This document shows, piece after piece, positions 14,115 to 50,195 of a stretch of 58,727 bases of DNA. Both the position numbers and the translations under genes were made by a program. Each line of letters starts with the position of its first letter. Position 1 is the stretch's first letter. This DNA is from Alphaproteobacteria bacterium. Lineage in GTDB: Bacteria; Pseudomonadota; Alphaproteobacteria; UBA7879; VGCX01. Below the pieces are notes generated by a model. That model made no database searches and had not been told where the DNA came from. It saw nothing but the letters and a program-made list of their open reading frames with translations. Location of the stretch: positions 1 through 58,727 of the forward strand of contig VGCX01000001.1 in assembly GCA_016869935.1 (NCBI GenBank). Direction: 5' to 3'.

Positions 14115-16157
14115 TTAGCCTAATTTAATCATTCCCCCCGTAAGGGCAATCATTCCACCAGCAATAGTAACACCCCCCGCACCGGTTAATTTGGCTGTTG
14201 CTCCTTTAATATCTACAAGAGTATCTGCCTCTATTTTAATAGTTGGCCCCTTAAAATCTGTGAGAGTCTTTCCAAGGGTTTTAATGTTATCTGCATTAAT
14301 AATAAGATCTTTTGTAATATTAAGGGTTAGGCTGCCATCAACGGTCACAGTCCCATCTTTTCCTACTTTAATCGTCGCATTTTTTCCAATCGTTAAATTC
14401 AAATCATCGCTGATCTTTGTGGTGCGACTTCCAGCAGCCAGTGTTAGAAAATCATCACCTTTACTAAGCGTTGTATCTCTTTTGCCTTCAACAATTGTTA
14501 AAATATCGTGACCCTTGCTTTTTGTTCCTTTAATAGTTGTCGTACGTTGACCATCTAAAATCATGGTCGTCATATCTGTTTGAGCTTGCATAAAGAAGTT
14601 TTCAGACCCTTTTGTGTCATCAAAATGAAGCTCGTTGAACCCACCACCGCCTTTGGAAGAATTTGTTTTAAAGCCACTTTTGATCGCCATATCGGGCCCA
14701 TAAGGGGGCATATTCGTTGCATTGTAAACGCACCCAATTACCAGAGGCTGATCAGGGTCCCCGTTCAAAAAAGTAATGATGACTTCCTGCCCAACACGGG
14801 GAATAAAAAAAGCACCCCAGTTTTTATCAGCCCAACTTTGGGCAACACGCACCCAACAAGAAACCGCATCGTCTTTTGTGTCGCTCAAATCCCAATGAAA
14901 CTTCACCATAATCCGGCCGTATTTGTCAGTCCAAATTTCTTCGCCAGCTTTACCGGAAACTGTTGCCGTTTGAGTCCCATAAATTTTTGGGATATGCGCT
15001 GTTTTGGGGGGGTGATAGGGCGTTTCTTTTTTATAAAATGTTATTTGATTATTATACTCTAAATCAAAAACATTCTCGGGAGAAAAAGATTGATTTGTCT
15101 CCAAGGCCTCTAAAACTGCCCGATGCTCAATGGAAAAAATTGTAAAATCTTTGCTTTTCAGGTCATCTCGAACGAGATTTTTTGCTACCTCATCTGACAG
15201 TGTGAATGTAGATCCTACCTCTACCATATGAATATCTGACTGCGCTTGAAGAGAGTTTTTGGGAAACTCCAAAGCAGCCATACGAATGTCAGAAAGGGCA
15301 GTGCCTCGATCCTGTAGAGTGTAGCGTCCGGGATAATGGTAAACCTCTCTTCCGCTCCCCTTCCCTGCAGAATCAACCTTGAGGCTCGTCTGTGTTTTCT
15401 CAAAATCATAGTCCGTATAAGTATGTTTGGAGGGAACTATTTGTTGCAAGAAACGAAGATTCCAGAGAGAAAAATCTCCCCCTAAAGGTCTTTCAGGATA
15501 CGGGGACATTTTTAGGGTAGCAAAATCAGCATCTTCAAGCGCTTGATAGGGCTGGCTTTCATCTACAAGGGTCAGTGTATGACTCCCCTCTTTATGCTTA
15601 AAATAGTATGCAATTCCTTCCTCTTCCATTAATCGAGAAACAAAATTGAAATTACTTTCATTATACTGAACACAAAAGTCTTTTTGTACCGTCCCTGCTG
15701 TACTGGTATTATCTTGTAAGGTGATGCTATGGTCTGAAAGAACGCTTTTGATGATTTCAAGAGGTGTTTTCTTTTGAAAAATCCGACACTGCTCTGTAAG
15801 AGTCATCCCCCACATTTTAGGACGAAGTTTGGCCTGAAAGTACGTTGATTGGGCGGTTCGATCTGCCTCTGCCCCTGCATGTAAGAAGGTTCCACCCTGA
15901 GTGACTTCTGTAATAACGCCGTGAAAATAGCGTTTCTTTTTATTAATACAAACCGTGACGGTTGCTTCTGTTTCCACAAGGGTTGAAAGATCTAGATTTG
16001 GTCCCTTTTTGTTAACCTGATAAGGAACATAAAGAGATAGGTCAAAGTCAAAAAGACCTGAGATGCGCTCTACGCCCTTAAACTCTCGAAGAAAGATCTG
16101 ATCTTTTCCAAGGGTCGTCGTAATTGATAGATAAACATTATCTTGAGTTGTGAGCAT
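14115..16157 (-). CDS. vgrG: Type VI secretion spike protein VgrG (TssI)
   Basis: 680 aa with a gp27-like N-terminal half and a gp5 OB-fold signature (RVAQSWADKNWGAFFIPRVGQEVIITFLNGDPDQPLVIGCVYN). The C-terminus is a beta-helix of G/T/K-rich repeats. Confidence 0.92.
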   Translation of the reverse strand: MLTTQDNVYLSITTTLGKDQIFLREFKGVERISGLFDFDLSLYVPYQVNKKGPNLDLSTLVETEATVTVCINKKKRYFHGVITEVTQGGTFLHAGAEADRTAQSTYFQAKLRPKMWGMTLTEQCRIFQKKTPLEIIKSVLSDHSITLQDNTSTAGTVQKDFCVQYNESNFNFVSRLMEEEGIAYYFKHKEGSHTLTLVDESQPYQALEDADFATLKMSPYPERPLGGDFSLWNLRFLQQIVPSKHTYTDYDFEKTQTSLKVDSAGKGSGREVYHYPGRYTLQDRGTALSDIRMAALEFPKNSLQAQSDIHMVEVGSTFTLSDEVAKNLVRDDLKSKDFTIFSIEHRAVLEALETNQSFSPENVFDLEYNNQITFYKKETPYHPPKTAHIPKIYGTQTATVSGKAGEEIWTDKYGRIMVKFHWDLSDTKDDAVSCWVRVAQSWADKNWGAFFIPRVGQEVIITFLNGDPDQPLVIGCVYNATNMPPYGPDMAIKSGFKTNSSKGGGGFNELHFDDTKGSENFFMQAQTDMTTMILDGQRTTTIKGTKSKGHDILTIVEGKRDTTLSKGDDFLTLAAGSRTTKISDDLNLTIGKNATIKVGKDGTVTVDGSLTLNITKDLIINADNIKTLGKTLTDFKGPTIKIEADTLVDIKGATAKLTGAGGVTIAGGMIALTGGMIKLG

Positions 16158-21890: not shown

Positions 21891-22457
21891 ATGAGTAATT
21901 CATCCAAAAAATTTCTAATCGGCGCTATCGCAGCAGCAGCTATTGGTGGCTACATTGTACATAAAAAATCACATAAAGAGGAAGAGCATCAAGCTCCTGT
22001 TGCTGAAACACAAACTTCAGAAACTTGCCCAGCGCATGTAATGATGACAGCACATGAAGAAATGAAGCTTGAAGCTGAGAAAAAAGCAGCAGAACATCAT
22101 GGCGTCGAGCATGCAGCACCTGCTCATCACGAAACTCCTGCTCATCATGTAGCACCTGCTCATCATGCAGCACCTGCTCATCACGAAACTCCTGCTCATC
22201 ATGCAGCCCCTGTTCATCATGCAGCCCCTGTTCATCATGCAGCTCCTGTTCATCATGCAACGCATGTTATGAAAACAGCGCATGAAGAAATGAAAAAAGA
22301 GGCAAAAGCGCCAGCACATGCTAAAGCGCCAGCACACCCAGTTGCGCATCATAAAGCGCCAGCACATGCTAAAGCACCTGTGCATCACAAAGCGCCAGCA
22401 CATGCTAAAGCACCAGCTAAGCAAGCTGAAACAGCTGGAACAGCTGAAAAGAAATAG
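21891..22457 (+). CDS. Membrane-anchored histidine-rich repeat protein
   Basis: N-terminal TM (FLIGAIAAAAIGGYIV), then eight xxP(A/V)HH hexapeptide repeats and KAPAHA-type repeats. The motif V M x TAHEEMK x EA occurs twice. Confidence 0.7.
   Translation: MSNSSKKFLIGAIAAAAIGGYIVHKKSHKEEEHQAPVAETQTSETCPAHVMMTAHEEMKLEAEKKAAEHHGVEHAAPAHHETPAHHVAPAHHAAPAHHETPAHHAAPVHHAAPVHHAAPVHHATHVMKTAHEEMKKEAKAPAHAKAPAHPVAHHKAPAHAKAPVHHKAPAHAKAPAKQAETAGTAEKK
22113..22256 (+). repeat. 8 x 18-bp in-frame tandem repeat (encodes xxP(A/V)HH units)
   Basis: Counted directly: the units start at 22113, 22131, 22149, 22167, 22185, 22203, 22221 and 22239. Confidence 0.9.
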
Positions 22458-22486
22458 TTTTTTTCGTTTAGTATCTCTCGTTTCAA

Positions 22487-22522
22487 ATCTCTCGCCCTTC
22501 ATCAGGCGGGAGATTTTATTTT
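22487..22522 (+). terminator. Rho-independent terminator after the His-rich gene
   Basis: The 10-bp stem atctctcgcc / ggcgggagat (one G-U pair) has an 8-nt loop and is followed by tttatttt. Confidence 0.55.
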
Positions 22523-22571
22523 GACAAGATTCCCCCTTCTCCTTCACAATAAAAATAAGAGGATAACCAGT

Positions 22572-23270
22572 ATGAAAAAATCAATTCTTTTCACCTTTTT
22601 ATGGGTCATTTTTTGTATAAGCCCCCTCAACAATTCAGAAGTTGTTTGGGCTAAAGGCAAGTCAGGCGGCAAATCTAATCCTGCAGATCAAGGTAGCGGC
22701 AATGATGGATCTGGAGGTGGAGGTGATGTGGCGGATGGTTCTCAAGACGGTTCTCAAGACCCTGGTGATAACGGCGGAGATAGCGGCGGCGTAGACGGCG
22801 CTGATGGTAATAGCGGAAACGATGGGAATGATAATGGGGGCGATACTTCTTCTGACGGGTCCTCTGATGCCTCTGGAGGGAATTCTGCCACACCCCCCAA
22901 ATGGGATGATAGTGCAATGTCATCGAGCAAACTGGCCCCACCCCCACCGCAAGAAGCTGTTGAATGCTTTGGCATTATGGGCGCAGGACAAAATGACAAC
23001 GTTTTTGTTGATGTGGATGGGCGTCAATATGGATACGGCGAAGCGCCAGCATGTCATCCTTTAGCCTCTATTAAACTTCCCAAAGACAGTCTCTATATGT
23101 GTGAAAATATTACAGTGGGTCGAACAGAAAAGGGGGAGCTTATTCGAGGATCGTTAAAACCCGATCCCGATCGCCGGTCCCCAATAGTTTGTTATCCTTA
23201 TGATTTTATTAAGCAAAAAATCACCTATATGAATCCCGATTATGCAGTCCCCCTCCGTGGTTTCAATTAG
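22572..23270 (+). CDS. Secreted DUF2282-like (bufferin BufA-like) protein with a long G/D/S-rich spacer
   Basis: AAGAGGA RBS before ATG 22572 and signal peptide MKKSILFTFLWVIFCISPLNNSEVVWA. ECFGIMGAGQNDN resembles the DUF2282 core C(Y/F)G(I/V)xxAGxNDC. There are four Cys in the C-terminal domain. The 3' end overlaps the DUF692 gene. Confidence 0.55.
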   Translation: MKKSILFTFLWVIFCISPLNNSEVVWAKGKSGGKSNPADQGSGNDGSGGGGDVADGSQDGSQDPGDNGGDSGGVDGADGNSGNDGNDNGGDTSSDGSSDASGGNSATPPKWDDSAMSSSKLAPPPPQEAVECFGIMGAGQNDNVFVDVDGRQYGYGEAPACHPLASIKLPKDSLYMCENITVGRTEKGELIRGSLKPDPDRRSPIVCYPYDFIKQKITYMNPDYAVPLRGFN

Positions 23271-24078
23271 TGCCGGTATTGGGTTGCGTCCCAATCATCT
23301 GGAAGAATTTATAAAAACACAGCCGCCCATTTCTTGGATCGAAGTCATTCTTGAAAACCATCGCTCAGGGGTCCGCCGCCAAGCACTGGAGAAGCTTCGA
23401 TCCACCTATCCCTTAAGTGTTCATAGCATTGGATTATCCCTTGGAAAGGCAGGTCCCCTTTCCAAAGATCACCTACGTCTTCTAAAAGAATTTTGTGATA
23501 TTTTTGATCCTTTTCTTGTTTCTGATCATGTAGCATGGACAGGAACGGATGATATTTTTTTGAACGACCTTCTGCCCCTTCCCTATACAGATGAATCTTT
23601 AAAAATTATTGTAGACCATATCCAAGAGGTCCAGGATTTCTTAGGACGTCAGATTTTAATTGAAAATTCTTCTAGTTATTTGACCTTTAACACATCAACA
23701 ATCGACGAAGCGGATTTTATGATTGCACTGGCACAACAAAGTGGATGTCTGATTTTGCTGGATGTTAATAATGTTTATGTCAGTAGCCATAATCATGGAT
23801 GGGATGCCATGCGCTATATCAGCAAAATCCCCGGATCTTTAGTTGGCGAAATTCATTTAGCCGGCCACCAAAAAGTCCAAGTGCCCAATCATCAAACGAT
23901 GCTTATCGATCATCATGGGGACTTTGTTGCAGAAGATGTGTGGAGTCTTTACGAAAAAACCCTGACCCTTTTAGGGCCCAAACCGACCCTCATTGAATGG
24001 GATACGAACATCCCCTCCCTTGATACAATTTTAAAGGAATCTTCTAAAGCTCAGGCGTATCTGAAGCGACTTCAATGA
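23242..24078 (+). CDS. DUF692-family multinuclear non-heme iron oxidase (MNIO; MbnB/BufB-like)
   Basis: GIGLRPNH, WIEVILEN, VHSIGLSLG, VSDHVAW, NDLLPLPYT, LIENSSSY, LLDVNNVYVSSHNHG and EIHLAGH follow the DUF692 consensus along the whole length. Confidence 0.82.
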   Translation: MQSPSVVSISAGIGLRPNHLEEFIKTQPPISWIEVILENHRSGVRRQALEKLRSTYPLSVHSIGLSLGKAGPLSKDHLRLLKEFCDIFDPFLVSDHVAWTGTDDIFLNDLLPLPYTDESLKIIVDHIQEVQDFLGRQILIENSSSYLTFNTSTIDEADFMIALAQQSGCLILLDVNNVYVSSHNHGWDAMRYISKIPGSLVGEIHLAGHQKVQVPNHQTMLIDHHGDFVAEDVWSLYEKTLTLLGPKPTLIEWDTNIPSLDTILKESSKAQAYLKRLQ

Positions 24079-24454
24079 TAGACGCGCTATCGGATGCTTC
24101 GTCTTTTTCACGTCCTTGCATAAGCTTTCGGTCAATTTCAAAAAGCACGTCCATAATATCACGAAGAGGCACGAGCACCTCGTGCACAAGATTCAAGATA
24201 TCCCAAAGATGTCGATACATCGCCTGTTGAAGAGGCGATATAACCATTCCCTTGCGCTGACGCTCCCACAAAACAGCTGCTTTGGTAAGGCCGTAAAAAA
24301 TTTCAAGTTCTTCAATTTCTTCTTCATCGAAGGGCTGGTCATCTTTTATAACCGATTTTGCAATCGCTTCTGTTTTCTTTTTTAAAATCAAACAATCTTT
24401 CAAAAGAGAATATTCGTTTTCTAAATCTTTATGCAGGGGTGATTTTTTAGTCAT
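24044..24454 (-). CDS. Hypothetical protein (136 aa, helical, acidic C-terminus)
   Basis: ORF only. It is convergent with the DUF692 gene and overlaps its 3' end. Confidence 0.4.
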   Translation of the reverse strand: MTKKSPLHKDLENEYSLLKDCLILKKKTEAIAKSVIKDDQPFDEEEIEELEIFYGLTKAAVLWERQRKGMVISPLQQAMYRHLWDILNLVHEVLVPLRDIMDVLFEIDRKLMQGREKDEASDSASIIEVASDTPEL

Positions 24455-24884: not shown

Positions 24885-25841
24885 ATGATAGAAAAAATTA
24901 ACTTTCAGGAATTAAACAACATTTACGTTCTAAGCAAATGCTTGCATATGCAATCAGCAGCTAATGCCCTAAAAATGCCAAAGTCAACGCTTCAGAATCA
25001 TTTGGAAGCTGTTGAGAAACGTCTGGGTGCAAGAATTTTTGAGCGCAGCCAAAAGTCTGGAGAAATGCTTCTCACCGCCTTTGGAAAGAATATTATTCCT
25101 AAAATTCAAGATATTCTGTGGCTTGCTGGCTCTCTATCTGCAACGGACGGCTTTTCAAAAGAAAAGAATAACTCTGGGGAGGTTTCTATTATGTCTACCC
25201 AAACAATCCTTGAAAACTACATTTGCCCAAATGTTAGAGAGCTTCTTGTTGAAAACCCTGAAATTAAGCTTTCTTTGAAGCAAAAAGACGAAAATTATTA
25301 TAGCCAACCCAATGTTAATGAAATATTTATTGGATGCTGGGAAGACAATACTGAAAATTACGAGTATTTTTTCTTTCATACATACACTCAAACCCTATGG
25401 GCTTCAGAACAGTACTTAGCATCTAATCCTCCCATTAATGAAATAAATGATCTGAAAGGCCATACTGTGATTTGCTTAAGAAGCATCAATGAGCATGAGT
25501 ATATAGCAACACAAGATTCGTTTTTCAAAAAATTAGCCCATATTAAAAATGAGATCAAAGTTCTTAGTGTGGCAGGTCCACGTGCAACAGACGTGTTGGC
25601 TGAAAACGGTGCAGGACTTATTTTGTGCGCTTCCGAATCTGTACGCCTTTGTGGACTAAAGTTAGAACCAGTTCTGCCTAGCGTAGTTGGGGAAACTGTT
25701 AATATTTACGTAAAAGTGCACAAGCAGTTTTTGAAATGGCCCCTTGCAAAGTTTATGGTTGACTGGATTTTTATGTGTAGAGACAAATCTCTCTCCTCTA
25801 TCGGAGTTCTTCCTGCAGAGCATAAGCCTTTACAACTCTGA
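24885..25841 (+). CDS. LysR-family transcriptional regulator
   Basis: N-terminal wHTH (LHMQSAANALKMPKSTLQNHLEAVEKRLGARIFERS) and a substrate-binding C-terminal domain. I prefer the start at MIEKINF (24885). Confidence 0.85.
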   Translation: MIEKINFQELNNIYVLSKCLHMQSAANALKMPKSTLQNHLEAVEKRLGARIFERSQKSGEMLLTAFGKNIIPKIQDILWLAGSLSATDGFSKEKNNSGEVSIMSTQTILENYICPNVRELLVENPEIKLSLKQKDENYYSQPNVNEIFIGCWEDNTENYEYFFFHTYTQTLWASEQYLASNPPINEINDLKGHTVICLRSINEHEYIATQDSFFKKLAHIKNEIKVLSVAGPRATDVLAENGAGLILCASESVRLCGLKLEPVLPSVVGETVNIYVKVHKQFLKWPLAKFMVDWIFMCRDKSLSSIGVLPAEHKPLQL

Positions 25842-25906
25842 GATGGAACTCCTTCTTTGAACAAAATGCCAAATGCTAGAGGAATCATTGCTTTTAAGCT
25901 TTTGTG

Positions 25907-25975
25907 TTAAGGCATTGTTGCGCAAGATAAGACATTTACACTTAATATTAAAAACGACACTCTATAAATCCACAT
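25907..25975 (-). CDS. Small hydrophobic peptide, copy 1 (22 aa: MWIYRVSFLILSVNVLSCATMP)
   Basis: Hand translation with GGAGA RBS 6 nt before the ATG and a promoter at 26023-26050. It is conserved in three paralogous copies with mostly synonymous or conservative changes. Confidence 0.55.
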   Translation of the reverse strand: MWIYRVSFLILSVNVLSCATMP

Positions 25976-26022
25976 TATAATCTCCAATGCTCTTACTATG
26001 TTAATATACCGCGGGTTTCTCT

Positions 26023-26050
26023 AATCTATTCTCTACCTTTAATTTGTCAA
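26023..26050 (-). promoter_or_regulatory. Sigma70-like promoter TTGACA-N16-TAGATT for peptide copy 1
   Basis: On the minus strand TTGACA is at 26050-26045 and TAGATT at 26028-26023. Confidence 0.55.
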
Positions 26051-26101
26051 CTTTTCATTGAAAAAATTTCGATAATGTATAATCAAAAAAAATACCTTGA
26101 T

Positions 26102-26119
26102 ATAACCATACATGGTTAT
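26102..26119. promoter_or_regulatory. Perfect palindrome ATAACCAT-AC-ATGGTTAT (candidate LysR-type operator)
   Basis: 8-2-8 inverted repeat downstream of a plus-strand TATAAT (gataatgtataat). An identical copy lies at 26929-26946. The middle module has a degenerate version. Confidence 0.45.
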
Positions 26120-26332
26120 GAAAAAAATCTAATTTTAATATAAAAGCTAATTAAAAAAAGACTCCGTAGAGGTTTTCGTAAAAGTTCATAGAGAATTCGC
26201 AGAACACGCCCTTGGAAAATTCATGATCAACTGGATTTTTCACTGCAGAGATCGTCTTTTTTTGGAGAATAAAATAACGCCCTCTTACGAATTTACTCCC
26301 CTCTAAAAACTATCTCTAGACTACTTAAAGCC

Positions 26333-26401
26333 TTAAGGAAACGTCGCATAAATCAGCACATTCACTGACAACACGAAAAACGACACTTTATAAATCCACA
26401 T
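26333..26401 (-). CDS. Small hydrophobic peptide, copy 2 (22 aa: MWIYKVSFFVLSVNVLIYATFP)
   Basis: Same architecture as copy 1: GGAGA-ctata-ATG, promoter at 26443-26470, same length and the same CCT TAA end. Confidence 0.55.
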   Translation of the reverse strand: MWIYKVSFFVLSVNVLIYATFP

Positions 26402-26442
26402 TATAGTCTCCAAATTTTAAATGAAATTTTAATCTAGGATTT

Positions 26443-26470
26443 AATGTATGCGCCGCCTTGAATTTGTCAA
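26443..26470 (-). promoter_or_regulatory. Sigma70-like promoter TTGACA-N16-TACATT for peptide copy 2
   Basis: On the minus strand TTGACA is at 26470-26465 and TACATT at 26448-26443. Confidence 0.55.
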
Positions 26471-26735
26471 CATATTCCTGGAAAAAATTCTAACTCTATT
26501 CTTCCATGTACTTCTTAAGAAATGATTTTGATGGTTTTTGAAAAAAATCTAATATTAATATAAAAGCTAATTAAAAAAAGACTCCCTAGAGATTTTCTTA
26601 AAGGTTCAGAGAGTATTTGCAGAAGATACCTTCGGAAAACTTATGCTCAACTGGATTTTTGCAACTAGAAACAAATTATGCACTTCGCTTGAGATCTTTT
26701 CGAAGATCAGAGGAATCATTTATTTGATAGATATC

Positions 26736-26804
26736 TTAAGGCATCGTTGCGCAAAAAAAGGCATTCAAAGTCAATACAAAGAACGATACTTTATAGGTCC
26801 ACAT
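26736..26804 (-). CDS. Small hydrophobic peptide, copy 3 (22 aa: MWTYKVSFFVLTLNAFFCATMP)
   Basis: Same architecture as copy 1: GGAGA-ttgta-ATG, promoter at 26850-26877, same length and the same CCT TAA end. Confidence 0.55.
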   Translation of the reverse strand: MWTYKVSFFVLTLNAFFCATMP

Positions 26805-26849
26805 TACAATCTCCAAATTTATGAAACATTCGCTTAACAAGGCCATCTT

Positions 26850-26877
26850 AATCTATTAGAAGGCTTAAATTTGTCAA
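26850..26877 (-). promoter_or_regulatory. Sigma70-like promoter TTGACA-N16-TAGATT for peptide copy 3
   Basis: On the minus strand TTGACA is at 26877-26872 and TAGATT at 26855-26850. Confidence 0.55.
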
Positions 26878-26928
26878 CTTTTCATTGAAAAAATTTCGAT
26901 AATGTATAATCAAAAAAAACACCTTGAT

Positions 26929-26946
26929 ATAACCATACATGGTTAT
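26929..26946. promoter_or_regulatory. Second copy of palindrome ATAACCAT-AC-ATGGTTAT, upstream of the MFS transporter gene
   Basis: Identical 18-mer, about 115 bp upstream of the MFS start at 27061. Confidence 0.45.
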
Positions 26947-27060
26947 GAAAAAATTCATATTTTAATAAAAGTTTTTTGTTTAGAAATTCTTTGAATTAAA
27001 TTTGAAAAGACTACCCTCAGACCCTTGTCAATCATTGGGCTTTCTATTATAAGTATTTTC

Positions 27061-28299: not shown

Positions 28300-28743
28300 C
28301 TATTCACCTAAAGAAGACTTAAGAATCCATATGTTTTTTGTGTGAATGCTCAAACGTTCTGTAGCAAGGGCTTCCGTAACAGAGTCTTCCTCTTTTTTAG
28401 CCTCTATCAAAAGTAAATTTAGATGATCAATAATTGTTTGATGCCCTCTAATCAAATCCTTGATCATTCCCTCTGCGTTTTCAGGGAGATCGTCAAATGA
28501 GAGCGCTGTATGTGTTTTTAGAAAATCAAAACTTACAGGAACTTTTTCGCCTAAAGCACTGATGCGCTCTGCCAGTGAATCGATTGCTGGAACCATTGAA
28601 AGATACTGAGATTCAAAAAGAGTATGATAACTATAAAAATGAGGACCTTTCACATTCCAATGATATCGCTGCGTTTTTAAATAAAGAGCATAAGTATCGC
28701 TAAAAACATTAAAAAGAAGATTTAAAACAGTTTTGTTAGACAT
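28300..28743 (-). CDS. dps: Dps-family DNA-protection/ferritin-like protein
   Basis: 147 aa with LKTQRYHWNVKGPHFYSYHTLFE and ferroxidase-centre residues. Confidence 0.9.
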   Translation of the reverse strand: MSNKTVLNLLFNVFSDTYALYLKTQRYHWNVKGPHFYSYHTLFESQYLSMVPAIDSLAERISALGEKVPVSFDFLKTHTALSFDDLPENAEGMIKDLIRGHQTIIDHLNLLLIEAKKEEDSVTEALATERLSIHTKNIWILKSSLGE

Positions 28744-29788: not shown

Positions 29789-31240
29789 ATGATTCACTAT
29801 CGCTCGATCTTTTTCTTTGTGGGGTGGCTTCTGCTTGTTTTAGCAGTGGCAATGCTTTTTCCACTCGCTTTTGAAGTAGCACTTCATGGGAACGATATTA
29901 AGGCCTATGGGTTAAGTTCAGCGATTACTTTGTTTTTGGGTGGATTACTTGTATCCTCTCATCAAACAGATCATGTGCTGGCTCTTGGAAAAAGAGATAC
30001 ATTCTTGCTGACAGTTTTCAGTTGGACCATTTCCATTTTATTCTCGGCCCTTCCTTTTCTTTTTTCTATGACGAACATATCGTTAACCGATGCTTTCTTT
30101 GAAAGTATTTCTGGAATGACGACAACGGGGGCAACTGTTTTAACAGATCTTGACCATAGTCCTGTTGGGATTCTTGTATGGCGCGCCATACTTCAATGGC
30201 TTGGAGGCATTGGAATCGTCGTAATGGCACTGACAATCATGGCAGACCTTCGTATTGGAGGCATGGAGCTTTTTCAAACAGACGGAGGCGATCCAACAGA
30301 AAAGCTTTTCCCTCGCATTCGCCAAGTAGCGCATACGATCTTTTTATCCTATATTGGAGTCACTATGGTTGGGATTGCTGCGCTTTACACCGCAAAGCTT
30401 TCTTTTGTTGATGCTTTCTGCCACGCGCTAACATCGATTGCAACTGGGGGATTTGCCAACTATGATACATCAATAGGGCATTATGACAGCCTGTCTGTTC
30501 CTTTGATTTTAACAGTCATTATGATTATCGGAGGATGTTCACAATTGCTCTTTGCGCGGTTGTGGATTGGGAAATATACAACACTTTTAGACGACTCTCA
30601 GCTTAGAACTTATATTAAAATTCTTTTGTTTATTGTTCTGAGCGTTTCTTTGTGGCGTCTTCTTAATAGTCAAAATCCTTCTTTTAAGATGTTGGTCCAT
30701 ACTTTGTTCAATATTACCTCTGTTATGACCACCACAGGATTTGCATCCGAGGACTATACAGCCTGGGGACCTTTTGCGATGATTCTCTTTTTTATTCTTC
30801 CCTTAATAGGCGGCTGCACAGGATCAACAACCGGAGGACTTAAAGTTTTTCGCCTTCAAGTGATTGCAGCTGTTATTATGATACAGCTTAAAAAATTGCG
30901 GCGGCCTCATGGTATTTTCTTGCCGAAATTCAAAGGCAAAGAACTTTCAGAAAGCTTAGTTCAATCCATTATTGGATTTGTTATGCTCTTTTTCTTATCT
31001 TGGTTTGTCCTTGCTCTTATTTTAAGTTTTCTAAATCTTGATTTTGTCACTGCACTTTCTGCTGCTTGTGCGATGCTCACAAACCTAGGCCCAGGCCTTG
31101 GTCCCCTCGTTGGCCCTGAGGGTACGTATGCTGGGTTTGCACCCGAAGTTAAATGGTGCCTAATGATTGGGATGCTTTTTGGGCGTTTAGAACTTCTTAC
31201 CCTTTATATTTTGTTTCTTCCTTCTTTTTGGAAAGATTGA
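29789..31240 (+). CDS. trkH: Trk-type potassium uptake protein TrkH
   Basis: 483-aa polytopic protein with repeated selectivity-filter-like MTTTG/ATGG/TTTGF/TGG segments typical of TrkH. Confidence 0.9.
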   Translation: MIHYRSIFFFVGWLLLVLAVAMLFPLAFEVALHGNDIKAYGLSSAITLFLGGLLVSSHQTDHVLALGKRDTFLLTVFSWTISILFSALPFLFSMTNISLTDAFFESISGMTTTGATVLTDLDHSPVGILVWRAILQWLGGIGIVVMALTIMADLRIGGMELFQTDGGDPTEKLFPRIRQVAHTIFLSYIGVTMVGIAALYTAKLSFVDAFCHALTSIATGGFANYDTSIGHYDSLSVPLILTVIMIIGGCSQLLFARLWIGKYTTLLDDSQLRTYIKILLFIVLSVSLWRLLNSQNPSFKMLVHTLFNITSVMTTTGFASEDYTAWGPFAMILFFILPLIGGCTGSTTGGLKVFRLQVIAAVIMIQLKKLRRPHGIFLPKFKGKELSESLVQSIIGFVMLFFLSWFVLALILSFLNLDFVTALSAACAMLTNLGPGLGPLVGPEGTYAGFAPEVKWCLMIGMLFGRLELLTLYILFLPSFWKD

Positions 31241-32384: not shown

Positions 32385-32960
32385 CTAAGACGGAACAGCT
32401 CGTACCTCTAAAACCTCTGGCACATAGTGCTTGAGCATACTTTCAATGCCTGATTTTAGGGTAAAAGATGAACTAGGGCAGCCCGAGCAGGCACCGCGAA
32501 GCTTTAAGAAAACAATACCCTCTTGGAATTTGGAAAAAACAATATCGCCCCCATCGACCGCAACAGCTGGTCGAATACGGGCTTCAATCAGATCTTTGAT
32601 CTGCTCAACAATCTGTAATTCTTCTTCTGTATACGTAATGTCAGTTTCTTCAAGATCCTCATAAATATCAGAAAGAATAGGTTTTTGTGCCAGCAAATGG
32701 TCCATTAAGGTACTTAAAATAAAGGGCTTTAAAGTGTCCCAGTCGGCATCATTATCTTTAGTAATGCTGACAAAGTCTTCCCCAATAAAAACCCGAGTGA
32801 TCCCATCAATGTCAAAAAAGCGTGTGGCAAGGGGGCTTTTTTGGGCCTCTTCCCGTGACGCGAAATCAGCAGATCCTGTCATGAGCAAGATAATACCTGG
32901 AATAAACTTGAGGGTTAAGGGGTTTGGGGTTTCTTGAGTTTGAATAAACATACCATTCAC
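32385..32960 (-). CDS. NFU-type iron-sulfur cluster scaffold/carrier (Nfu_N + NifU C-terminal domain)
   Basis: MFIQTQETPNPLTLKF N-domain and the CSGCPSS cluster motif. The start could instead be 32951. Confidence 0.85.
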   Translation of the reverse strand: MNGMFIQTQETPNPLTLKFIPGIILLMTGSADFASREEAQKSPLATRFFDIDGITRVFIGEDFVSITKDNDADWDTLKPFILSTLMDHLLAQKPILSDIYEDLEETDITYTEEELQIVEQIKDLIEARIRPAVAVDGGDIVFSKFQEGIVFLKLRGACSGCPSSSFTLKSGIESMLKHYVPEVLEVRAVPS

Positions 32961-33073: not shown

Positions 33074-33378
33074 TCTTTTGGAACAATTTGGAACTTTAGT
33101 CCTAATCCATCCAAAATCATCCCAATGGTTTCGATTTTTGGTTGACGCTTGGCAGACAAAACTTTGTATAAGTTTTGACGGTTTAATGCCGTTCTTTTAG
33201 CAAGTGCCCCGACCCCACCCTGTGATTCAGTCACATCTTTAATCGCCTTTAAAAAGCAAGCTACGTTATGGTCTCGTTTAAAATCTAGTAATGCTTCTGT
33301 TAGATATAAAGCAGCATCCTGTGGATCTTTAAGCTCCTCAATGTTGTAGGCGTGAAATGATCTGATTGTGTGTTGCAT
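33052..33378 (-). CDS. Addiction-module antidote protein (HTH, HigA-2-like)
   Basis: 108 aa. YNIEELKDPQDAALYL...GGVGALAKRTALNRQNLYKVLS is typical of this antidote family. It is paired with an upstream killer gene. Confidence 0.8.
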   Translation of the reverse strand: MQHTIRSFHAYNIEELKDPQDAALYLTEALLDFKRDHNVACFLKAIKDVTESQGGVGALAKRTALNRQNLYKVLSAKRQPKIETIGMILDGLGLKFQIVPKEDLFATS

Positions 33379-33691
33379 TTTTTATGTCCTTCCAATATCT
33401 AATCGCTTTTTTAATATCTTCGGCTTGAGAAGCCTTATGTCCACCACAAAGAAGAAAAATCGTTAAATCACCTTGTAGCCCAAAATAAACACGGTATCCC
33501 GAGTTAAAGAAAAATCTAAGCTCATAAACACCAAAACCTAAAAATTTATAGCCCCCAAAATGTCCTATTTCTAGTTGTGCGACTCTTTTTCTAATCCTTA
33601 GCTGCACCACTTTATCAAGAGATTTAAGCCAATCTATAAAAGGCTCTCTTTCTTCAAATGTTTTGTAGATAAGAACATGTTTAAAGCTCAA
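33338..33691 (-). CDS. RelE/ParE-superfamily addiction-module killer protein (Gp49/HigB-2-like)
   Basis: 117 aa with a TTG start preceded by AGGAG. Motifs: F..WL..L.......I..R...L..G.FG..K.LG.GVYELR...GYRVYF. Confidence 0.8.
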   Translation of the reverse strand: MSFKHVLIYKTFEEREPFIDWLKSLDKVVQLRIRKRVAQLEIGHFGGYKFLGFGVYELRFFFNSGYRVYFGLQGDLTIFLLCGGHKASQAEDIKKAIRYWKDIKNATHNQIISRLQH

Positions 33692-33707
33692 GACTTACTT
33701 ACTCCTG

Positions 33708-33736
33708 ATAGTATCCTATGGGCGACAATTTGTCAA
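33708..33736 (-). promoter_or_regulatory. Promoter TTGACA-N17-TACTAT with overlapping palindrome GACAA-t-TTGTC for TA cassette 1
   Basis: Read on the minus strand. The palindrome at 33724-33734 overlaps the -35 element. Confidence 0.55.
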
Positions 33737-33748
33737 ATTCTTTAACAA

Positions 33749-33802
33749 ATCATGGAAAGAAGAATGGCTGAAGTCCAGTTGAAAAAAAGGAATTTTTTCA
33801 AC
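33749..33802. repeat. 54-bp repeat with internal hairpin gttgaaaaaa-N5-ttttttcaac (copy 1), upstream of TA cassette 1
   Basis: 53/54 identical to 34541-34594. Confidence 0.9.
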
Positions 33803-33853
33803 TAAATAGTAGGATTTTTATGTCTATTGAGGCGGTTAGTAAAGCTTCTTTAA

Positions 33854-33876
33854 TTTAAGAAGTTGCGAATAAATCT
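33854..33876. repeat. 23-bp boundary repeat (copy 2)
   Basis: Identical to 33051-33073. Confidence 0.9.
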
Positions 33877-34187
33877 CCATGTGATTGGATCAATTTCAAC
33901 TCTGGAGCTATTTTTTTCTCGGCGTGCCACAAGTCAAAGTTCTGCTGCATCCGCAACCAAAAAGAGGGCGTACCGCCACAAAATCGGGCAAGCTTTAGAG
34001 CCATTTCTGGCGTAACGGATGCCTTTTCTGCCATAATTTTATGAAGAGTTTGGCGCGAGATTCTAAGATGAGCCGCCGCTTCTTTGACAGAGAGTTTTAA
34101 AGCCGGCAAAACATCTTCCAAAAGAATAGCCCCAGGATGTGTTGGAGGGCGTATTAAAGGTTCTTTTACAGTATAAATCATCTTCAT
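33855..34187 (-). CDS. higA: HigA-family antitoxin (XRE HTH)
   Basis: 110 aa. THPGAILLEDVL...LSVKEAAAHLRISRQTLHKIMAEKASVTPEMALKLARFCGGTPSFWLRMQ is the canonical HigA/VapI pattern. Confidence 0.85.
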   Translation of the reverse strand: MKMIYTVKEPLIRPPTHPGAILLEDVLPALKLSVKEAAAHLRISRQTLHKIMAEKASVTPEMALKLARFCGGTPSFWLRMQQNFDLWHAEKKIAPELKLIQSHGDLFATS

Positions 34188-46823: not shown

Positions 46824-49800
46824 CTAATTTTCTTTCTGTTTTTTAAAATCATATTCTACCAGTTGTGTCGCTTCTGTCCACAAGAGAAAAGGTCTAATTT
46901 TATAGGACGGGTAAATGACTTGCAGCGCTTGTTGATAAAGGATTATTTGGTTTTTGTAAGCTTCTGGTGGCATTTTTTTATAAGAATAGTCAAAAGCACC
47001 TGTCTTATAATCTATCACATGAACTTCCTTTAAAGTATCATTAACCCACAAAAAATCCATCGTCCCTTTTACAACAGAATTTGTTTCTGTATCAAGACGC
47101 TGAAACGGCACCTCTGTTAAAATTATCCCCTCCGCAAAATAAGAATGACGTACCAAAAGATCTATGGTTTTTTGAAGAAGTAGGAATAATCGATCCGCTT
47201 CTTCTTTTTGAACATACTGTTCTAAGAATTGCCTTGTTAGCCCCTCTCGTTCTGCACCCGGATCTTTAATCAACCACTCAAGGGCTTTGTGCAAAAGAAT
47301 CCCTCGATCCACAGCCCGAAGACTGCTTTCGATCCCATTTTTTTGACCATCAATTTCCCCTTGCTGGGAAGGGTAAATAATTGGAAGCACAGATTCTGCT
47401 TTTGCTTTTTTATCTACCCACGAGGGAAGGGATTTTGAAAAAGGCAATACGTCTTGTATAGGCTCAGACGAAACGACTTCTTCTGCTTTTTGATAAATTA
47501 CAAGCCCGTCTTCCTGGGTTTTTCCATCAAAGCATAAAGGGGTTGAAACACCAAGATCTTGAGTGGCGGCCAATACCAGGTCATACCAAGAAAGAGTCGT
47601 CGATGCTTTATGGTTCTTCCACCCGCATACATACAGCTCATCTTCGGCGCGGGTTAAGGCCACATAAAGCAAGCGATAGTATTCCGCCTGTTCATCGTAT
47701 TGCGGATGAAGAGACTGAATATAATCAGTTTTAAAGCGGCTTTTAGGACACCAAAATAATACGGGATTTTCAGCAATTGATTGGCCCCAAAACAAGGAAG
47801 CATGGGCATTTGGAACTTGTGTTGTATCAGGTAGAAACACGATCGGCGCCTCTAACCCTTTGGATCCATGAACCGTCATAATACGAACTTTGTCTTCTGT
47901 TGATTGTTCAAGATTTCTCTTAATTTCCGTATTTTCTTTTCGCATCCATGAAAGAAAAATCTGCAAAGATCCCCCAAAATCTTTTTCAAAAGAAAGACAA
48001 AGATTTAAAAATTCCTCCAGAGCATCTTCTGCATCATTCCCTAAACGTTCAAGCATCTTTTGCCGCCCTGGCAGGATATGCAAAACATAATGGTAAAAAT
48101 CAAACGGGGAATAAAAATCCACGCGATTTAAAAGATCTGTTAAATAAGCGAAAGCTTCTTGATAAATAGGCTTTTCTGTTTGTCTTTGCTTAAGCGTATG
48201 CCAGAGGCTCCGCCCCTTTCGATAATAGCTGAGCTCAAAAAGATCGTGTTCTTCCATCCCAATTAGGGGTGACTTTAAGATCGTTGCAAGGGCTAAGTCA
48301 TCTTCTGGAAGCAAGAGAAAATCACCTAAAACCAAGAGATCCATAATCCCCATATGATCCGTTAAGACTAGTCGATCGGCTCCTGTGACGGGAATAGATT
48401 TATTTTTTAAGGCTCGCACGAGCTCTTCAACGAATTGATCACGGCGGCGAACTAATATCATAATATCGCTTGGACGAATGGGTCTGTTTTTCGGTTCCAA
48501 AATTCTTTTTTCCTGGAGCCAAAGATGAATACGTTCTGCGATACGTTCTGCAACTTCCTTGCGGGCTGTTGTTGCATAAATTTGGGTATTGGGTAAAGCC
48601 CAAGGCTCACGTTCTTCTTTTTCTGGGGCATTGACCAGTGGCCAAACTTCCACCCGTCCACCATGATTTTTTCGATAACTTTCATGAGGTACATAGTCTA
48701 AATTTAAGCCAGGAGGGGATAATGTTGGGTTTTTCTGAAACACTTGATCGACAAGGTCTAAGACGGGCTGCGTTGATCGGAAAGAGGTAGAAAGCGTAAT
48801 ATTTTTCCAGGAATGTTTTGCATTTTCTGCCTGCGCAGAAAATAAAGATTTAACCGCTTGAAAGGCAAAAGGATTTGCCCCTTGGAAACTATAAATCGAT
48901 TGCTTCATATCGCCAACCACAAACAGCGTTCTAAGACGATTGGGATCTGGTTCTGTTGAAAAAAATTCAGCGGCAATTGATGCAATAACTTGCCACTGAT
49001 CTTCATTGGTATCTTGGGCTTCATCAACCAAAATATGCTGAATGCCCCCATCAAGCTTATAAAGAACCCATGGGGCATTTTCTGGTTGTTGGAATAGTAC
49101 TGCGGTTTTATAAATAAGATCATCATAATCCAAAAATGCTTCTATCGTTTTAAGATGGTGGTAGCGATCTAAGGCATGGTGAATAAAATGAAGAAAAACG
49201 TTTGTTGCTTCTGCAATAATAGCGTGATGATAGCGATGCATAACCATCATCAAATAGGCCGCCTCTTTTTGAAAAACTTCCTCCAGCTCTGGGTGTTTTT
49301 TTGCAAAAGAAGCAGAAACGATTTTCTGTCTTTGCTCATTTTTTGCCGTTAAGAAAAACTTTTTATAGGTCTCAAAATCTTCAACTTTTTCTTGAGGGCT
49401 TTTGAGAATCCATTTTTTTAAAAACCCTCCAAAAACATTATCTGCTGTCGTTCCTTGCTCCAAAAGATCAAAAAAATCTTGAGGGCCAGTCTCTAAATAA
49501 GACCCCTTCAGTTCTTCTTCCAAAATCTTATCTGGTGCAAGCCCAAAAGGAATCTTAAGAGAAGTATAAATATCCTCTATCATTTTAATTGAAGGTTCTT
49601 TCCCAACAATTCTAGCCCGTTTTTGTAGAATGCTTTTTAAAAGATCAAAAAGCTGATCTGTTGTCACATAGCGCGCAAAAACTTTCAGCTGATCCGAAGA
49701 AAGATCTTGCATTGTTTCTTTGAAGGATCGCTCAAGACAGTCTTTGCTTTGAGCATCAGTCATAACACGAAAATGTGGTGGAACCTTTGCTTCAAGGGGA

Positions 49801-50195
49801 AATTTTTTCAAAACCATCTGACAAAAAGAATGAATGGTCTGAATTTTCATTCCCCCAGGCACATCAATTACCGTTGCAAAAAGACTTGTCGCACGATCAA
49901 GCTCCTGACGGGTTGGAGCTCTCGATAAAAGTGATGATAATTCTTGTCTTAAGGCTTCTTCATCAAAAGACGCCCAAATTGCAAGTTTTTCTTGAATACG
50001 ATTGGCCATTTCAGCGGCCGCTGCTTTTGTAAAAGTCAGGCATAAAATGTTTTCAGGAACTGCCCCTGTTAACAAAAGCATTAAAACACGATCGGTTAAA
50101 ACTTTGGTTTTTCCTGTTCCAGCGGAAGCTTCCACCCAACAAGAATGTGTTGGAGATGCTGCTTGCCTTTGCTGAAGCGATGCTGTTGTGATCAT
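46824..50195 (-). CDS. addA: Double-strand break repair helicase-nuclease AddA (alphaproteobacterial type)
   Basis: 1123 aa with UvrD-like motifs (ASAGTGKT, VDEAQDT) and a C-terminal PD-(D/E)XK motif (DFLWV...VIDYKTG). Confidence 0.9.
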   Translation of the reverse strand: MITTASLQQRQAASPTHSCWVEASAGTGKTKVLTDRVLMLLLTGAVPENILCLTFTKAAAAEMANRIQEKLAIWASFDEEALRQELSSLLSRAPTRQELDRATSLFATVIDVPGGMKIQTIHSFCQMVLKKFPLEAKVPPHFRVMTDAQSKDCLERSFKETMQDLSSDQLKVFARYVTTDQLFDLLKSILQKRARIVGKEPSIKMIEDIYTSLKIPFGLAPDKILEEELKGSYLETGPQDFFDLLEQGTTADNVFGGFLKKWILKSPQEKVEDFETYKKFFLTAKNEQRQKIVSASFAKKHPELEEVFQKEAAYLMMVMHRYHHAIIAEATNVFLHFIHHALDRYHHLKTIEAFLDYDDLIYKTAVLFQQPENAPWVLYKLDGGIQHILVDEAQDTNEDQWQVIASIAAEFFSTEPDPNRLRTLFVVGDMKQSIYSFQGANPFAFQAVKSLFSAQAENAKHSWKNITLSTSFRSTQPVLDLVDQVFQKNPTLSPPGLNLDYVPHESYRKNHGGRVEVWPLVNAPEKEEREPWALPNTQIYATTARKEVAERIAERIHLWLQEKRILEPKNRPIRPSDIMILVRRRDQFVEELVRALKNKSIPVTGADRLVLTDHMGIMDLLVLGDFLLLPEDDLALATILKSPLIGMEEHDLFELSYYRKGRSLWHTLKQRQTEKPIYQEAFAYLTDLLNRVDFYSPFDFYHYVLHILPGRQKMLERLGNDAEDALEEFLNLCLSFEKDFGGSLQIFLSWMRKENTEIKRNLEQSTEDKVRIMTVHGSKGLEAPIVFLPDTTQVPNAHASLFWGQSIAENPVLFWCPKSRFKTDYIQSLHPQYDEQAEYYRLLYVALTRAEDELYVCGWKNHKASTTLSWYDLVLAATQDLGVSTPLCFDGKTQEDGLVIYQKAEEVVSSEPIQDVLPFSKSLPSWVDKKAKAESVLPIIYPSQQGEIDGQKNGIESSLRAVDRGILLHKALEWLIKDPGAEREGLTRQFLEQYVQKEEADRLFLLLQKTIDLLVRHSYFAEGIILTEVPFQRLDTETNSVVKGTMDFLWVNDTLKEVHVIDYKTGAFDYSYKKMPPEAYKNQIILYQQALQVIYPSYKIRPFLLWTEATQLVEYDFKKQKEN

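Follow-up and report, generated by a model that had tools for sequence, protein, structure and literature searches.

Bufferins (captophorins) constitute the largest MNIO-RiPP family, in which the copper site is built from two central cysteines. The bufferin 1 system of Caulobacter vibrioides, BufA1-BufB-BufC-DoxX, has DUF2282 precursors encoded in 'gig' operons and counts among the captophorins (MNIO-PME1 thiooxazole peptides). The locus described here lies in a 58.7-kb window, i.e. the whole stretch of DNA that was analysed, and belongs to an uncultured alphaproteobacterium. Probably (at a rough probability of 0.55) it represents a Buf1-type bufferin (captophorin) system that has been reduced and split, and of which this is the bufA-bufB half. 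The system itself is known, and the locus is a new and rare variant of it, not a partner-less new class. In common with bufferin 1, it has a BufB-type MNIO above the NCBIfam equivalog cut-off, encoded directly 3' of a precursor gene whose product starts with a putative Sec signal peptide and keeps CysI and CysIV in a fold derived from DUF2282, and the full bufABC-doxX order is found in sister lineages. By contrast, the Buf1 thiooxazole and copper ligands CysII and CysIII are replaced here by Asn and Tyr, the precursor has an acidic spacer of about 95 residues after the signal peptide and a C-terminal extension of about 50 residues with two extra invariant cysteines, bufC and doxX are absent from the locus, and the Pfam DUF2282 model misses the precursor.

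Two other groups of systems invite comparison. The oxazolin system HvfA-HvfB-HvfC of Haemophilus influenzae and the fontiphorins have a closely related MNIO, Sec-exported precursors and a PME-type 1 partner; however, their precursors consist of EGKCG repeats, which are lacking from the folded domain found here, and the MNIO of the window scores 222.8 bits against the NCBIfam HvfB model, under its cut-off of 360. MovX, from Vibrio methanobactin-like clusters, and ChrH, for which ChrI is reportedly dispensable, resemble the locus in that no partner gene adjoins the MNIO. They nevertheless form separate MNIO sequence clusters, MovX carries a fused winged-helix domain whereas the MNIO here is without any additional domain, and a BufC orthologue very probably exists elsewhere in the genome in the present case.

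Layout of the locus and its enzyme

The features of the locus, in coordinates of the window, are as follows.

21891..22457, + strand: His/Met-rich membrane-anchored protein, 188 aa
22485..22564, + strand: intergenic signals, whole stretch
22485-22516, + strand: terminator-like hairpin (consensus match only)
22521-22550, + strand: promoter-like TTGACA-N18-CACAAT (consensus match only)
22558-22564, + strand: Shine-Dalgarno AAGAGGA (consensus match only)
22572..22652, + strand: predicted Sec-type signal peptide of the precursor, residues 1-27, MKKSILFTFLWVIFCISPLNNSEVVWA (inspection of the translation)
22653..22934, + strand: acidic G/S/D/N-rich low-complexity spacer, residues 28-121 (composition, alignment)
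22935..23270, + strand: 'NDN-type' extended DUF2282 domain, ~110 aa (alignment, hhalign, AlphaFold2)
23242..24078, + strand: BufB-type MNIO (DUF692), 278 aa, intact (HMM scores, motifs, dN/dS)
24044..24454, - strand: convergent acidic helical orphan protein, 136 aa (synteny in the reduced clade)
24885..25841, + strand: LysR-family regulator, divergent from the 136-aa gene unit (HTH_1 and LysR_substrate matches)

The original prediction of a secreted 232-aa protein overlapping a 278-aa MNIO by 29 nt, followed by a convergent gene, agrees with these coordinates: the precursor ORF (22572-23270, +; 232 aa counted from the ATG; MBM3609930) and the MNIO ORF (23242-24078, +; 278 aa; MBM3609931) share 29 nt, and the next gene runs from 24044 to 24454 on the reverse strand. 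The ATG at 22572 is likely to be the start of the precursor; AAGAGGA lies 7 nt upstream of it and is preceded by the promoter-like TTGACA-N18-CACAAT and the terminator-like hairpin. Promoter-like sites around the locus are no more numerous than the shuffled expectation.

The assignment of the 278-aa ORF as a DUF692/MNIO enzyme is secure, with scores above the cut-offs of both PF05114 (E 1.2e-95, 320.2 bits; cut-off 25) and NCBIfam NF050167 MNIO_BufB (345.4 bits; cut-off 310). It is similar to PDB 3BWW (E 1.4e-42), with the His/Asp/Glu motifs of which its own invariant motifs align. Across seven MNIOs from the partner-linked and reduced clades, H61, H96, E141, D174, N176, H205, H209, D223, H224/H225 and E252 are invariant; we take the His, Asp and Glu residues to be the TIM-barrel iron ligands, an assignment carried over from published MNIO structures. 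Within the reduced clade the MNIO has a dN/dS of 0.09-0.18, at a dS that is saturated (>1), and is under purifying selection.

The precursor and its divergent DUF2282 domain

In all precursor homologues the N-terminus is hydrophobic and shows a VWA-K junction, and on inspection it is judged to be a putative Sec signal peptide. The long, acidic G/D/S/N-rich spacer predicted to separate signal peptide and core is present at residues 28-121 (26 G, 18 S, 17 D and 8 N; pI 4.05), and alignment reveals that both its length and its sequence vary among homologues. It is followed by the motif ECFGIMGAGQNDN at residues 131-143.

This motif had led to the suggestion that the C-terminal domain resembles DUF2282/BufA, with a DUF2282 HMM search named as the check that could overturn the link to bufferins. 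Searched directly with Pfam PF10048 (DUF2282; gathering threshold 22.4 bits), the 232-aa protein does not score, no match being found at E<=10; the absence of a direct Pfam match is an observation against the favoured explanation of the locus. The resemblance is instead upheld by profile-profile and transitive evidence. Sub-threshold matches to PF10048 are found in three of the 11 NDN family members (best E 0.0069), hhalign pairs the domain with a Pfam-positive extended DUF2282 subgroup (99.2%, E 6e-20, 85 columns), and a search with the family profile recovers DUF2282 proteins that are themselves Pfam-positive (E from 4.5e-11 to 9e-4). Among 1.84 billion representatives, the profile search picked out 17 clusters, 15 of them genuine, and in seven clusters the Pfam DUF2282 model exceeds its gathering score. 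The large proteins P0017 and P0023 from this search are spurious repeat matches. Judged by these profile comparisons, the C-terminal domain is a real, very divergent DUF2282 domain.

The domain is well conserved, with 52 invariant columns in an alignment of 11 sequences, a mean column identity of 79%, and 68-95% identity between the family domains and that of the window. An AlphaFold2 model built on a 22-sequence alignment reached a pLDDT of 90.2, a run on a shallow 11-sequence alignment having been discarded (pLDDT 41). The predicted structure has two strands and a short helix that bear CysI and CysIV, an arrangement also described for Buf1 (PMC11626156). A Foldseek comparison of this model with the PDB produced no analogue (best E 0.2, TM <0.2), and searching PDB sequences with a profile turned up no more than chance matches to dihydroorotate dehydrogenase (E ~0.04).

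The NDN family is rare: it accounts for around 15 clusters in 1.84 billion representative proteins, and members occur in three of 185,579 species genomes. Of the metagenome scans, one yielded none and another a single near-identical 2-kb contig. The supplements of the MNIO landscape paper list no NDN family accessions.

Gene contexts in related lineages and a distal BufC

Full operons are found in L003/L008, L011/L012, L013 and L020, in the order BufA1, BufA1 with a His-rich tail, NDN-type extended DUF2282 protein, BufB, BufC (DUF2063-RRE) and DoxX; a canonical BufA1 is present in every one. A reduced layout is common to the window, L017, L005-7 and L014-15. The NDN gene is always directly 5' of the MNIO, usually overlapping it, an arrangement also seen in L016 and L019. 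Family members also occur with no adjacent MNIO, in L001/2, L009, L010 and L021, an observation that goes against the favoured explanation. Comparison of gene orders suggests that the window locus is a reduced derivative of the full operon.

The 188-aa protein upstream of the precursor contains 34 His residues, with seven AP(A/V)HH repeats and two HVM(M/K)TAHEEM motifs. It aligns with BufA1 proteins of L003, L011 and L013 through a common N-terminal anchor, MxNSxKKLLIGAVAAAAIGGY, and a His-rich tail; these proteins are PF10048-positive, and in the 188-aa protein the core region is replaced. On this alignment, it is the orthologue of the second BufA1 of the full operons, with the DUF2282 core lost. 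The ORF is kept upstream of the precursor in L005, L014, L017 and L001. A BufA1 in which the cysteine core has been swapped for His/Met-rich repeats suggests modification-dependent metal binding giving way to genetically encoded binding.

The prediction that the locus has neither a DUF2063 nor a DoxX gene was borne out across the contig, as tblastn with related BufC and L003 DoxX sequences detected neither gene in the 58.7-kb window (best E 1.2 for BufC and 2.1 for DoxX). Nor were remnants of bufC, doxX or canonical bufA1 detected in this window. However, a BufC-type DUF2063 protein (PF09836 cluster), MBM3610208.1, is 47% identical to the BufC of L003 and is encoded on a 25.9-kb contig. The proteins of the window are numbered consecutively from MBM3609928 to MBM3609966, and the number of MBM3610208.1 comes 242 proteins later than the last of these; this accession numbering indicates that it very probably comes from another contig of the same MAG. 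It might be part of a second complete buf operon, a possibility that counts against the favoured explanation. In a sister MAG, GCA_032155125.1, the equivalent DUF2063 protein is on a 94.6-kb contig, and the BufC identity matrix is congruent with that of the MNIO.

The original prediction had gone on to propose that a partner-less pair may represent a new MNIO-RiPP subclass. This is not supported, because the same precursor occurs in canonical bufA-bufB-bufC-doxX operons of sister lineages and because a distal BufC-type protein, MBM3610208.1, is very probably encoded by the same MAG. For genome mining, the implication is that an MNIO locus that looks 'partner-less' can stem from an operon that has been split. 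The favoured history is one in which the ancestral operon would still be intact in the sister lineages. In the clade of the window, the first BufA1 would have been lost and the second would have kept its membrane anchor and His-rich tail while losing the cysteine core, and bufC would no longer be adjacent, very probably lying on another contig of the same genome.

Cysteine positions and competing explanations

Profile alignment equates C132 with CysI and C177 with CysIV, and places the invariant Asn143 at CysII and Tyr155 at CysIII. The remaining cysteines, C161 (APACHP) and C207 (CYPYD), are specific to the subgroup, and all four of the NDN-type domain are invariant in the alignment. The replacement of the second core cysteine by Asn, and the retention of four cysteines, had both been recognised in the original prediction, which nevertheless understated the loss, CysIII having gone too. 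In Buf1, CysII and CysIII become thiooxazoles, while CysI and CysIV are unmodified and disulfide-bonded (PMC11626156, PMC12452194). On this alignment, the putatively secreted 232-aa protein lacks both of the cysteines that BufB and BufC convert to copper-binding 5-thiooxazoles in Buf1. The absence of both known target cysteines is a further observation against the favoured explanation; the four that are left could all be in structural disulfides, and hence there may be nothing left to modify.

Under the split-operon explanation, the 232-aa protein would be exported by Sec, with an acidic disordered stalk bearing a compact DUF2282-derived folded domain that retains the structural CysI-CysIV pair. 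It can be proposed tentatively, at a little short of even odds, that the MNIO and a trans-encoded BufC still modify this precursor in the cytoplasm before export, with C161 and/or C207 as targets and the metal site moved within the fold, and that periplasmic copper is buffered together with the His/Met-rich protein; here we infer the action of the partner in trans, the residues modified and the identity of the metal. That the BufB-type MNIO, with trans-encoded BufC or alone, modifies non-canonical positions of the ~110-residue folded domain (C161, C207 or even Asn143) is more doubtful. If true, the metal site would have moved or would differ chemically, these proteins would make up a new subclass of bufferins that has abandoned the classical thiooxazole loop, and the enzyme would be one that can be retargeted within one fold.

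The strongest alternative, although we consider it unlikely, is that the 232-aa protein is an unmodified, disulfide-stabilised bufferin paralogue, which might serve as a periplasmic accessory or bind another cation via its conserved QNDN/Asp/Glu/His loop and acidic stalk. It would then be merely co-transcribed with bufB, and BufB and the distal BufC would modify canonical BufA1 peptides encoded elsewhere in the genome. The loss of both Buf1 modification sites is as expected from this, as is the retention of homologues with no adjacent MNIO, and the four invariant cysteines are compatible with a pair of structural disulfides, one joining CysI to CysIV, as in Buf1, and the second assigned by elimination. 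There are genomes with several precursors, only some of which may be modified (PMC12452194), and canonical BufA1 genes are present in all the full operons; that these could be the sole true substrate of the enzyme is an observation against the favoured explanation. Yet the NDN gene is invariably directly 5' of bufB, often with translational overlap, and canonical BufA1 is undetectable in the 58.7-kb window. Furthermore, the protein is the sole cysteine-containing secreted protein at the locus in the reduced clade, in which the MNIO is nevertheless under strong purifying selection.

It is quite improbable that the locus encodes a partner-independent MNIO-precursor pair, in which the MNIO would directly recognise either the folded domain or the long spacer, the distal DUF2063 protein serving another system or genome. 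No DUF2063, DoxX or recognisable remnant lies within 22 kb upstream or 34 kb downstream, the layout is kept in at least three diverged lineages, and such MNIOs exist elsewhere in the superfamily, namely MovX and the system in which ChrI is reported to be dispensable (PMC12452194). Against this, the MNIO has no extra domain, at 278 aa compared to 280-295 aa in its partner-linked relatives, and the closest characterised systems need a partner: HvfA binds HvfC rather than HvfB, and BufB and BufC are both required. An intact BufC orthologue with a phylogeny congruent with that of the MNIO is also retained in the same lineage. Still less credible is a decaying, non-functional operon remnant in a genome undergoing reduction, as the stepwise losses across lineages (of the BufA1 core, of bufC/doxX adjacency and, in L001, of the MNIO itself) are set against three intact ORFs, invariant catalytic motifs, a precursor domain 68-95% identical across the family, and MNIO and precursor genes that are kept in several lineages with a dN/dS of 0.09-0.19 at saturated dS.

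The NDN family is a natural variant in which both copper-site cysteines are gone, yet the gene stays beside bufB and the enzyme is under selection. With it one can test directly which feature BufB/BufC recognise, be it the sequence around the cysteines, the signal peptide or the fold, and whether the modification site can migrate.

The convergent 136-aa ORF was considered as a hidden partner of PME-type 2, a class of DUF2063-like helical proteins that lack the Pfam signature, and this idea gained no support. Its product has no Pfam or NCBIfam match and belongs to an orphan family consisting of close relatives only; hhalign against three BufC sequences gave a probability of 0.6%, on shallow alignments (6 and 3 sequences), and a PDB profile search, also with a shallow alignment, found nothing. 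The ORF is kept in L005, L014 and L017 with a dN/dS of 0.15-0.22. The LysR-family regulator beyond it is likewise a syntenic neighbour in the reduced clade, with 86% identity in L005 and L014.

Bufferin homology of the precursor and its enzyme

The window, which is the entire 58,727-bp contig of the NCBI MAG titled "Alphaproteobacteria bacterium", encodes the precursor listed in GenBank as MBM3609930.1 (FJX18_00130, "hypothetical protein") and the enzyme listed as MBM3609931.1 ("DUF692 domain-containing protein"). ORF translation reproduced the overlapping 232-aa and 278-aa pair of the original prediction, and the ORF map 3' of the enzyme gene agreed that the next gene is convergent. The relevant features are:

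21891-22457 (+), His/Met-rich protein, 188 aa, upstream of the precursor
22572-23270 (+), precursor, 232 aa, ORF from the ATG at 22572
23242-24078 (+), MNIO, 278 aa, overlapping the precursor ORF by 29 nt

Upstream of this ATG are AAGAGGA, a promoter-like site and a terminator-like hairpin closing the preceding gene. Assignment of the enzyme to DUF692/MNIO was upheld by matches to PF05114 (E 1.2e-95) and NCBIfam MNIO_BufB (345.4 bits, cut-off 310), scores that identify it as an MNIO of the BufB type; no extra domain was found in it.

The precursor begins with a hydrophobic stretch; a G/S/D/N-rich spacer of 94 residues (pI 4.05) follows, and the C-terminal domain of 111 residues contains Cys 132, 161, 177 and 207. 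The likeness of this domain to DUF2282 was not recovered by direct testing, as the window precursor matched nothing in Pfam or NCBIfam; when 11 domain sequences were scanned singly against DUF2282 at E<=10, only three matched, all below threshold (best E 0.0069). By contrast, profile-profile comparison with Pfam-positive extended DUF2282 proteins gave 99.2% probability (E 6e-20, 85 columns). The domain profile matched only 17 clusters among 1.84 billion representative proteins, seven of which (P0016, P0018-22 and P0024) pass the Pfam gathering score for DUF2282 and cover the whole model; two of the 17 were discarded as spurious repeat matches. A confident AlphaFold2 model built from a 22-sequence alignment (pLDDT 90.2, pTM 0.82) places C132 on the first strand, followed by a second strand and a short helix with C177; Buf1 is described as having this topology, its disulfide joining the first strand to the short helix (PMC11626156). 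No structural analogue of the fold was found in the PDB. Homology to the DUF2282 bufferin domain is solid, despite the failed direct tests.

The system groups with the Buf1 bufferins, which are also counted among the captophorins (PMC13097082) and from which it differs in that the precursor has neither a Pfam score above threshold nor the central Cys pair, and in that bufC and doxX are not at the locus. The published survey of the MNIO landscape, which limited signal-peptide precursors to <200 residues and assigned no precursor to approximately 4,000 MNIOs, does not list the window or family accessions in its supplements.

Gene neighbourhoods and the probable location of BufC

The family, named after the NDN motif with Asn in place of the second Buf1 Cys, is very rare: a set of 5.8 billion proteins yields 11 clusters at 90% identity, and 185,579 species genomes contain three loci, each in an alphaproteobacterial MAG. 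Complete operons (loci L003/L004/L008, L011/L012, L013 and L020) run BufA1, BufA1 with a His-rich tail, NDN protein, MNIO, HvfC_N/DUF2063 and DoxX, usually followed by yajC-secDF. A reduced layout of His-rich protein, NDN protein, MNIO, convergent 125-136-aa orphan and LysR gene is found in the window, the sister MAG (L017, GCA_032155125.1), L005-7 and L014-15. At L016, L019 and one further contig the MNIO directly follows the NDN gene before the contig ends, and at L001/2, L009, L010 and L021 the NDN gene has no adjacent MNIO.

The 188-aa protein and the second BufA1 of the full operons have a membrane anchor and a His-rich tail in common, but the 188-aa protein carries HVMMTAHEEMK-type motifs where BufA1 has the DUF2282 core. 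It is a BufA1 whose Cys core has been lost, which makes the window locus a derived, reduced form of the three-precursor operon. GenBank annotates no protein for this ORF (accessions pass from 929 to 930 over 21891-22457); the sister MAG has an annotated gene of 189 aa at the corresponding place. His/Met-rich homologues are kept 5' of the NDN gene even without an MNIO (L001).

As originally predicted, no DUF2063 or DoxX gene follows the enzyme, and tblastn with related-operon sequences detected no homologue of either in the 58.7-kb window, nor a second DUF2282 gene; the convergent 136-aa gene, a member of a clade-restricted orphan family, showed no similarity to BufC in profile comparison. The partner-less new class proposed on this basis is not sustained, given the full operons in sister lineages and a probable distal BufC. 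A profile of three full-operon BufC proteins retrieved cluster P0050 (PF09836), 47% identical to the L003 BufC, whose NCBI member MBM3610208.1 (full length after trimming an over-extended start) lies on a 25.9-kb contig. As the window proteins are numbered consecutively along the contig (MBM3609928, 929, 930, 931, 939, 964 and 966, the last gene), MBM3610208 is 242 proteins further on, and by this numbering almost certainly comes from the same assembly. A second P0050 member, on a 94.6-kb NCBI contig, parallels this case, the NDN-MNIO pair of the sister MAG being on a 32.6-kb contig. Furthermore, the BufC identity matrix mirrors that of the MNIOs, with P0055, P0052 and P0053 apart from the full-operon BufCs, as expected if an orthologous partner had moved elsewhere in the genome. 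MBM3610208.1 may sit in a second complete buf operon. That the window holds bufA and bufB from a split Buf1-type cluster is well supported, with BufC very probably encoded in trans.

Cysteine complement and fate of the precursor

In Buf1, CysI and CysIV stay unmodified and pair in a disulfide, while CysII and CysIII become copper-binding 5-thiooxazoles (PMC11626156; PMC12452194). The alignment gives the following equivalences:

C132, CysI
N143, position of CysII
Y155, position of CysIII
C161 (APACHP, aligned with ACDP), subgroup-specific
C177, CysIV
C207 (CYPYD), subgroup-specific

The reported replacement of the second core Cys by Asn is correct but incomplete, since CysIII is also gone; hence the NDN family lacks both known modification sites. 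C161 and C207 are traits of an "extended DUF2282" subgroup with a C-terminal extension of ~50 residues, and the only Cys invariant in all 22 aligned sequences are CysI, C161, CysIV and C207.

In contrast to this well-supported identity of the locus, the mechanism is one we infer: C161, C207 or both may still be modified in the NDN protein before it is exported (probability roughly 0.45). This is favoured because the NDN gene always lies immediately 5' of bufB, because no other secreted protein with Cys is left at the reduced locus, and because the MNIO is under selection. The main rival, which we consider rather unlikely, would make the NDN protein an unmodified two-disulfide paralogue, with BufB and BufC acting on a canonical BufA1 encoded elsewhere. 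A truly partner-independent MNIO-precursor pair is improbable, because the closest published systems need a partner: HvfA binds HvfC rather than HvfB, both being required (PMC11252979), BufB and BufC are jointly required (PMC11626156), and PME-type 1 partners accompany MNIOs whose precursors bear a Sec signal (PMC12452194). A decaying remnant is the least credible explanation, as MNIO dN/dS is 0.09-0.18 among the reduced clade, where dS is saturated (0.06-0.07 in the partner-linked clade), and the His/Asp/Glu motifs common to MNIOs and the reference structure 3BWW are all invariant in both clades; the window enzyme is not a relic. The interest of the system lies mainly in its value as a natural experiment on how MNIOs recognise their substrates, not in a partner-less new class.

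Other features of the window and related loci

At L001 (8001-16555) and L002, the NDN-type and His-rich genes precede a gene for a 3144-aa protein running off the locus, with phage-like genes (Peptidase_S78, lysozyme) upstream. Distant short 'NEN' versions (143-159 aa, ~44% identical) without an adjoining MNIO occur at L009 (770-2277), where DoxX follows, and L010 (9836-10984); both loci have a conserved secreted helical protein of 212-240 aa downstream, then secA. The 270-aa database call for the NDN homologue P0008 (L003 8001-8813) starts ~80 residues too early, placing a charged non-homologous N-terminus before the signal peptide. L008 is a 46% GC MAG whose record title, 'Rhizobium sp. Q54', looks doubtful.

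Within the window, fragments at 26166-26303 and 26586-26729 resemble the final ~45 residues of the neighbouring LysR regulator (tblastn E 5.5e-9 and 1e-5); they fall in an apparently non-coding 1.2 kb (25842-27024) and may be duplicated pseudogene pieces. By synteny with L017, the 680-aa ORF at 14115-16157 (-) corresponds to a VgrG-like protein (Phage_GPD, Phage_base_V, Gp5_trimer_C), which would suggest that this MAG encodes a component of type VI secretion. Large ORFs lie at 46824-53014 (-). A Gp49-like ORF (sub-threshold, E 1.8e-4) adjoining an HTH_3 protein at 33338-34187 (-) has the look of a HigB/HigA-type toxin-antitoxin pair, and near it are:

28300-28743, Dps/ferritin-like gene
29789-31240, TrkH
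32385-32960, NfuA-type gene
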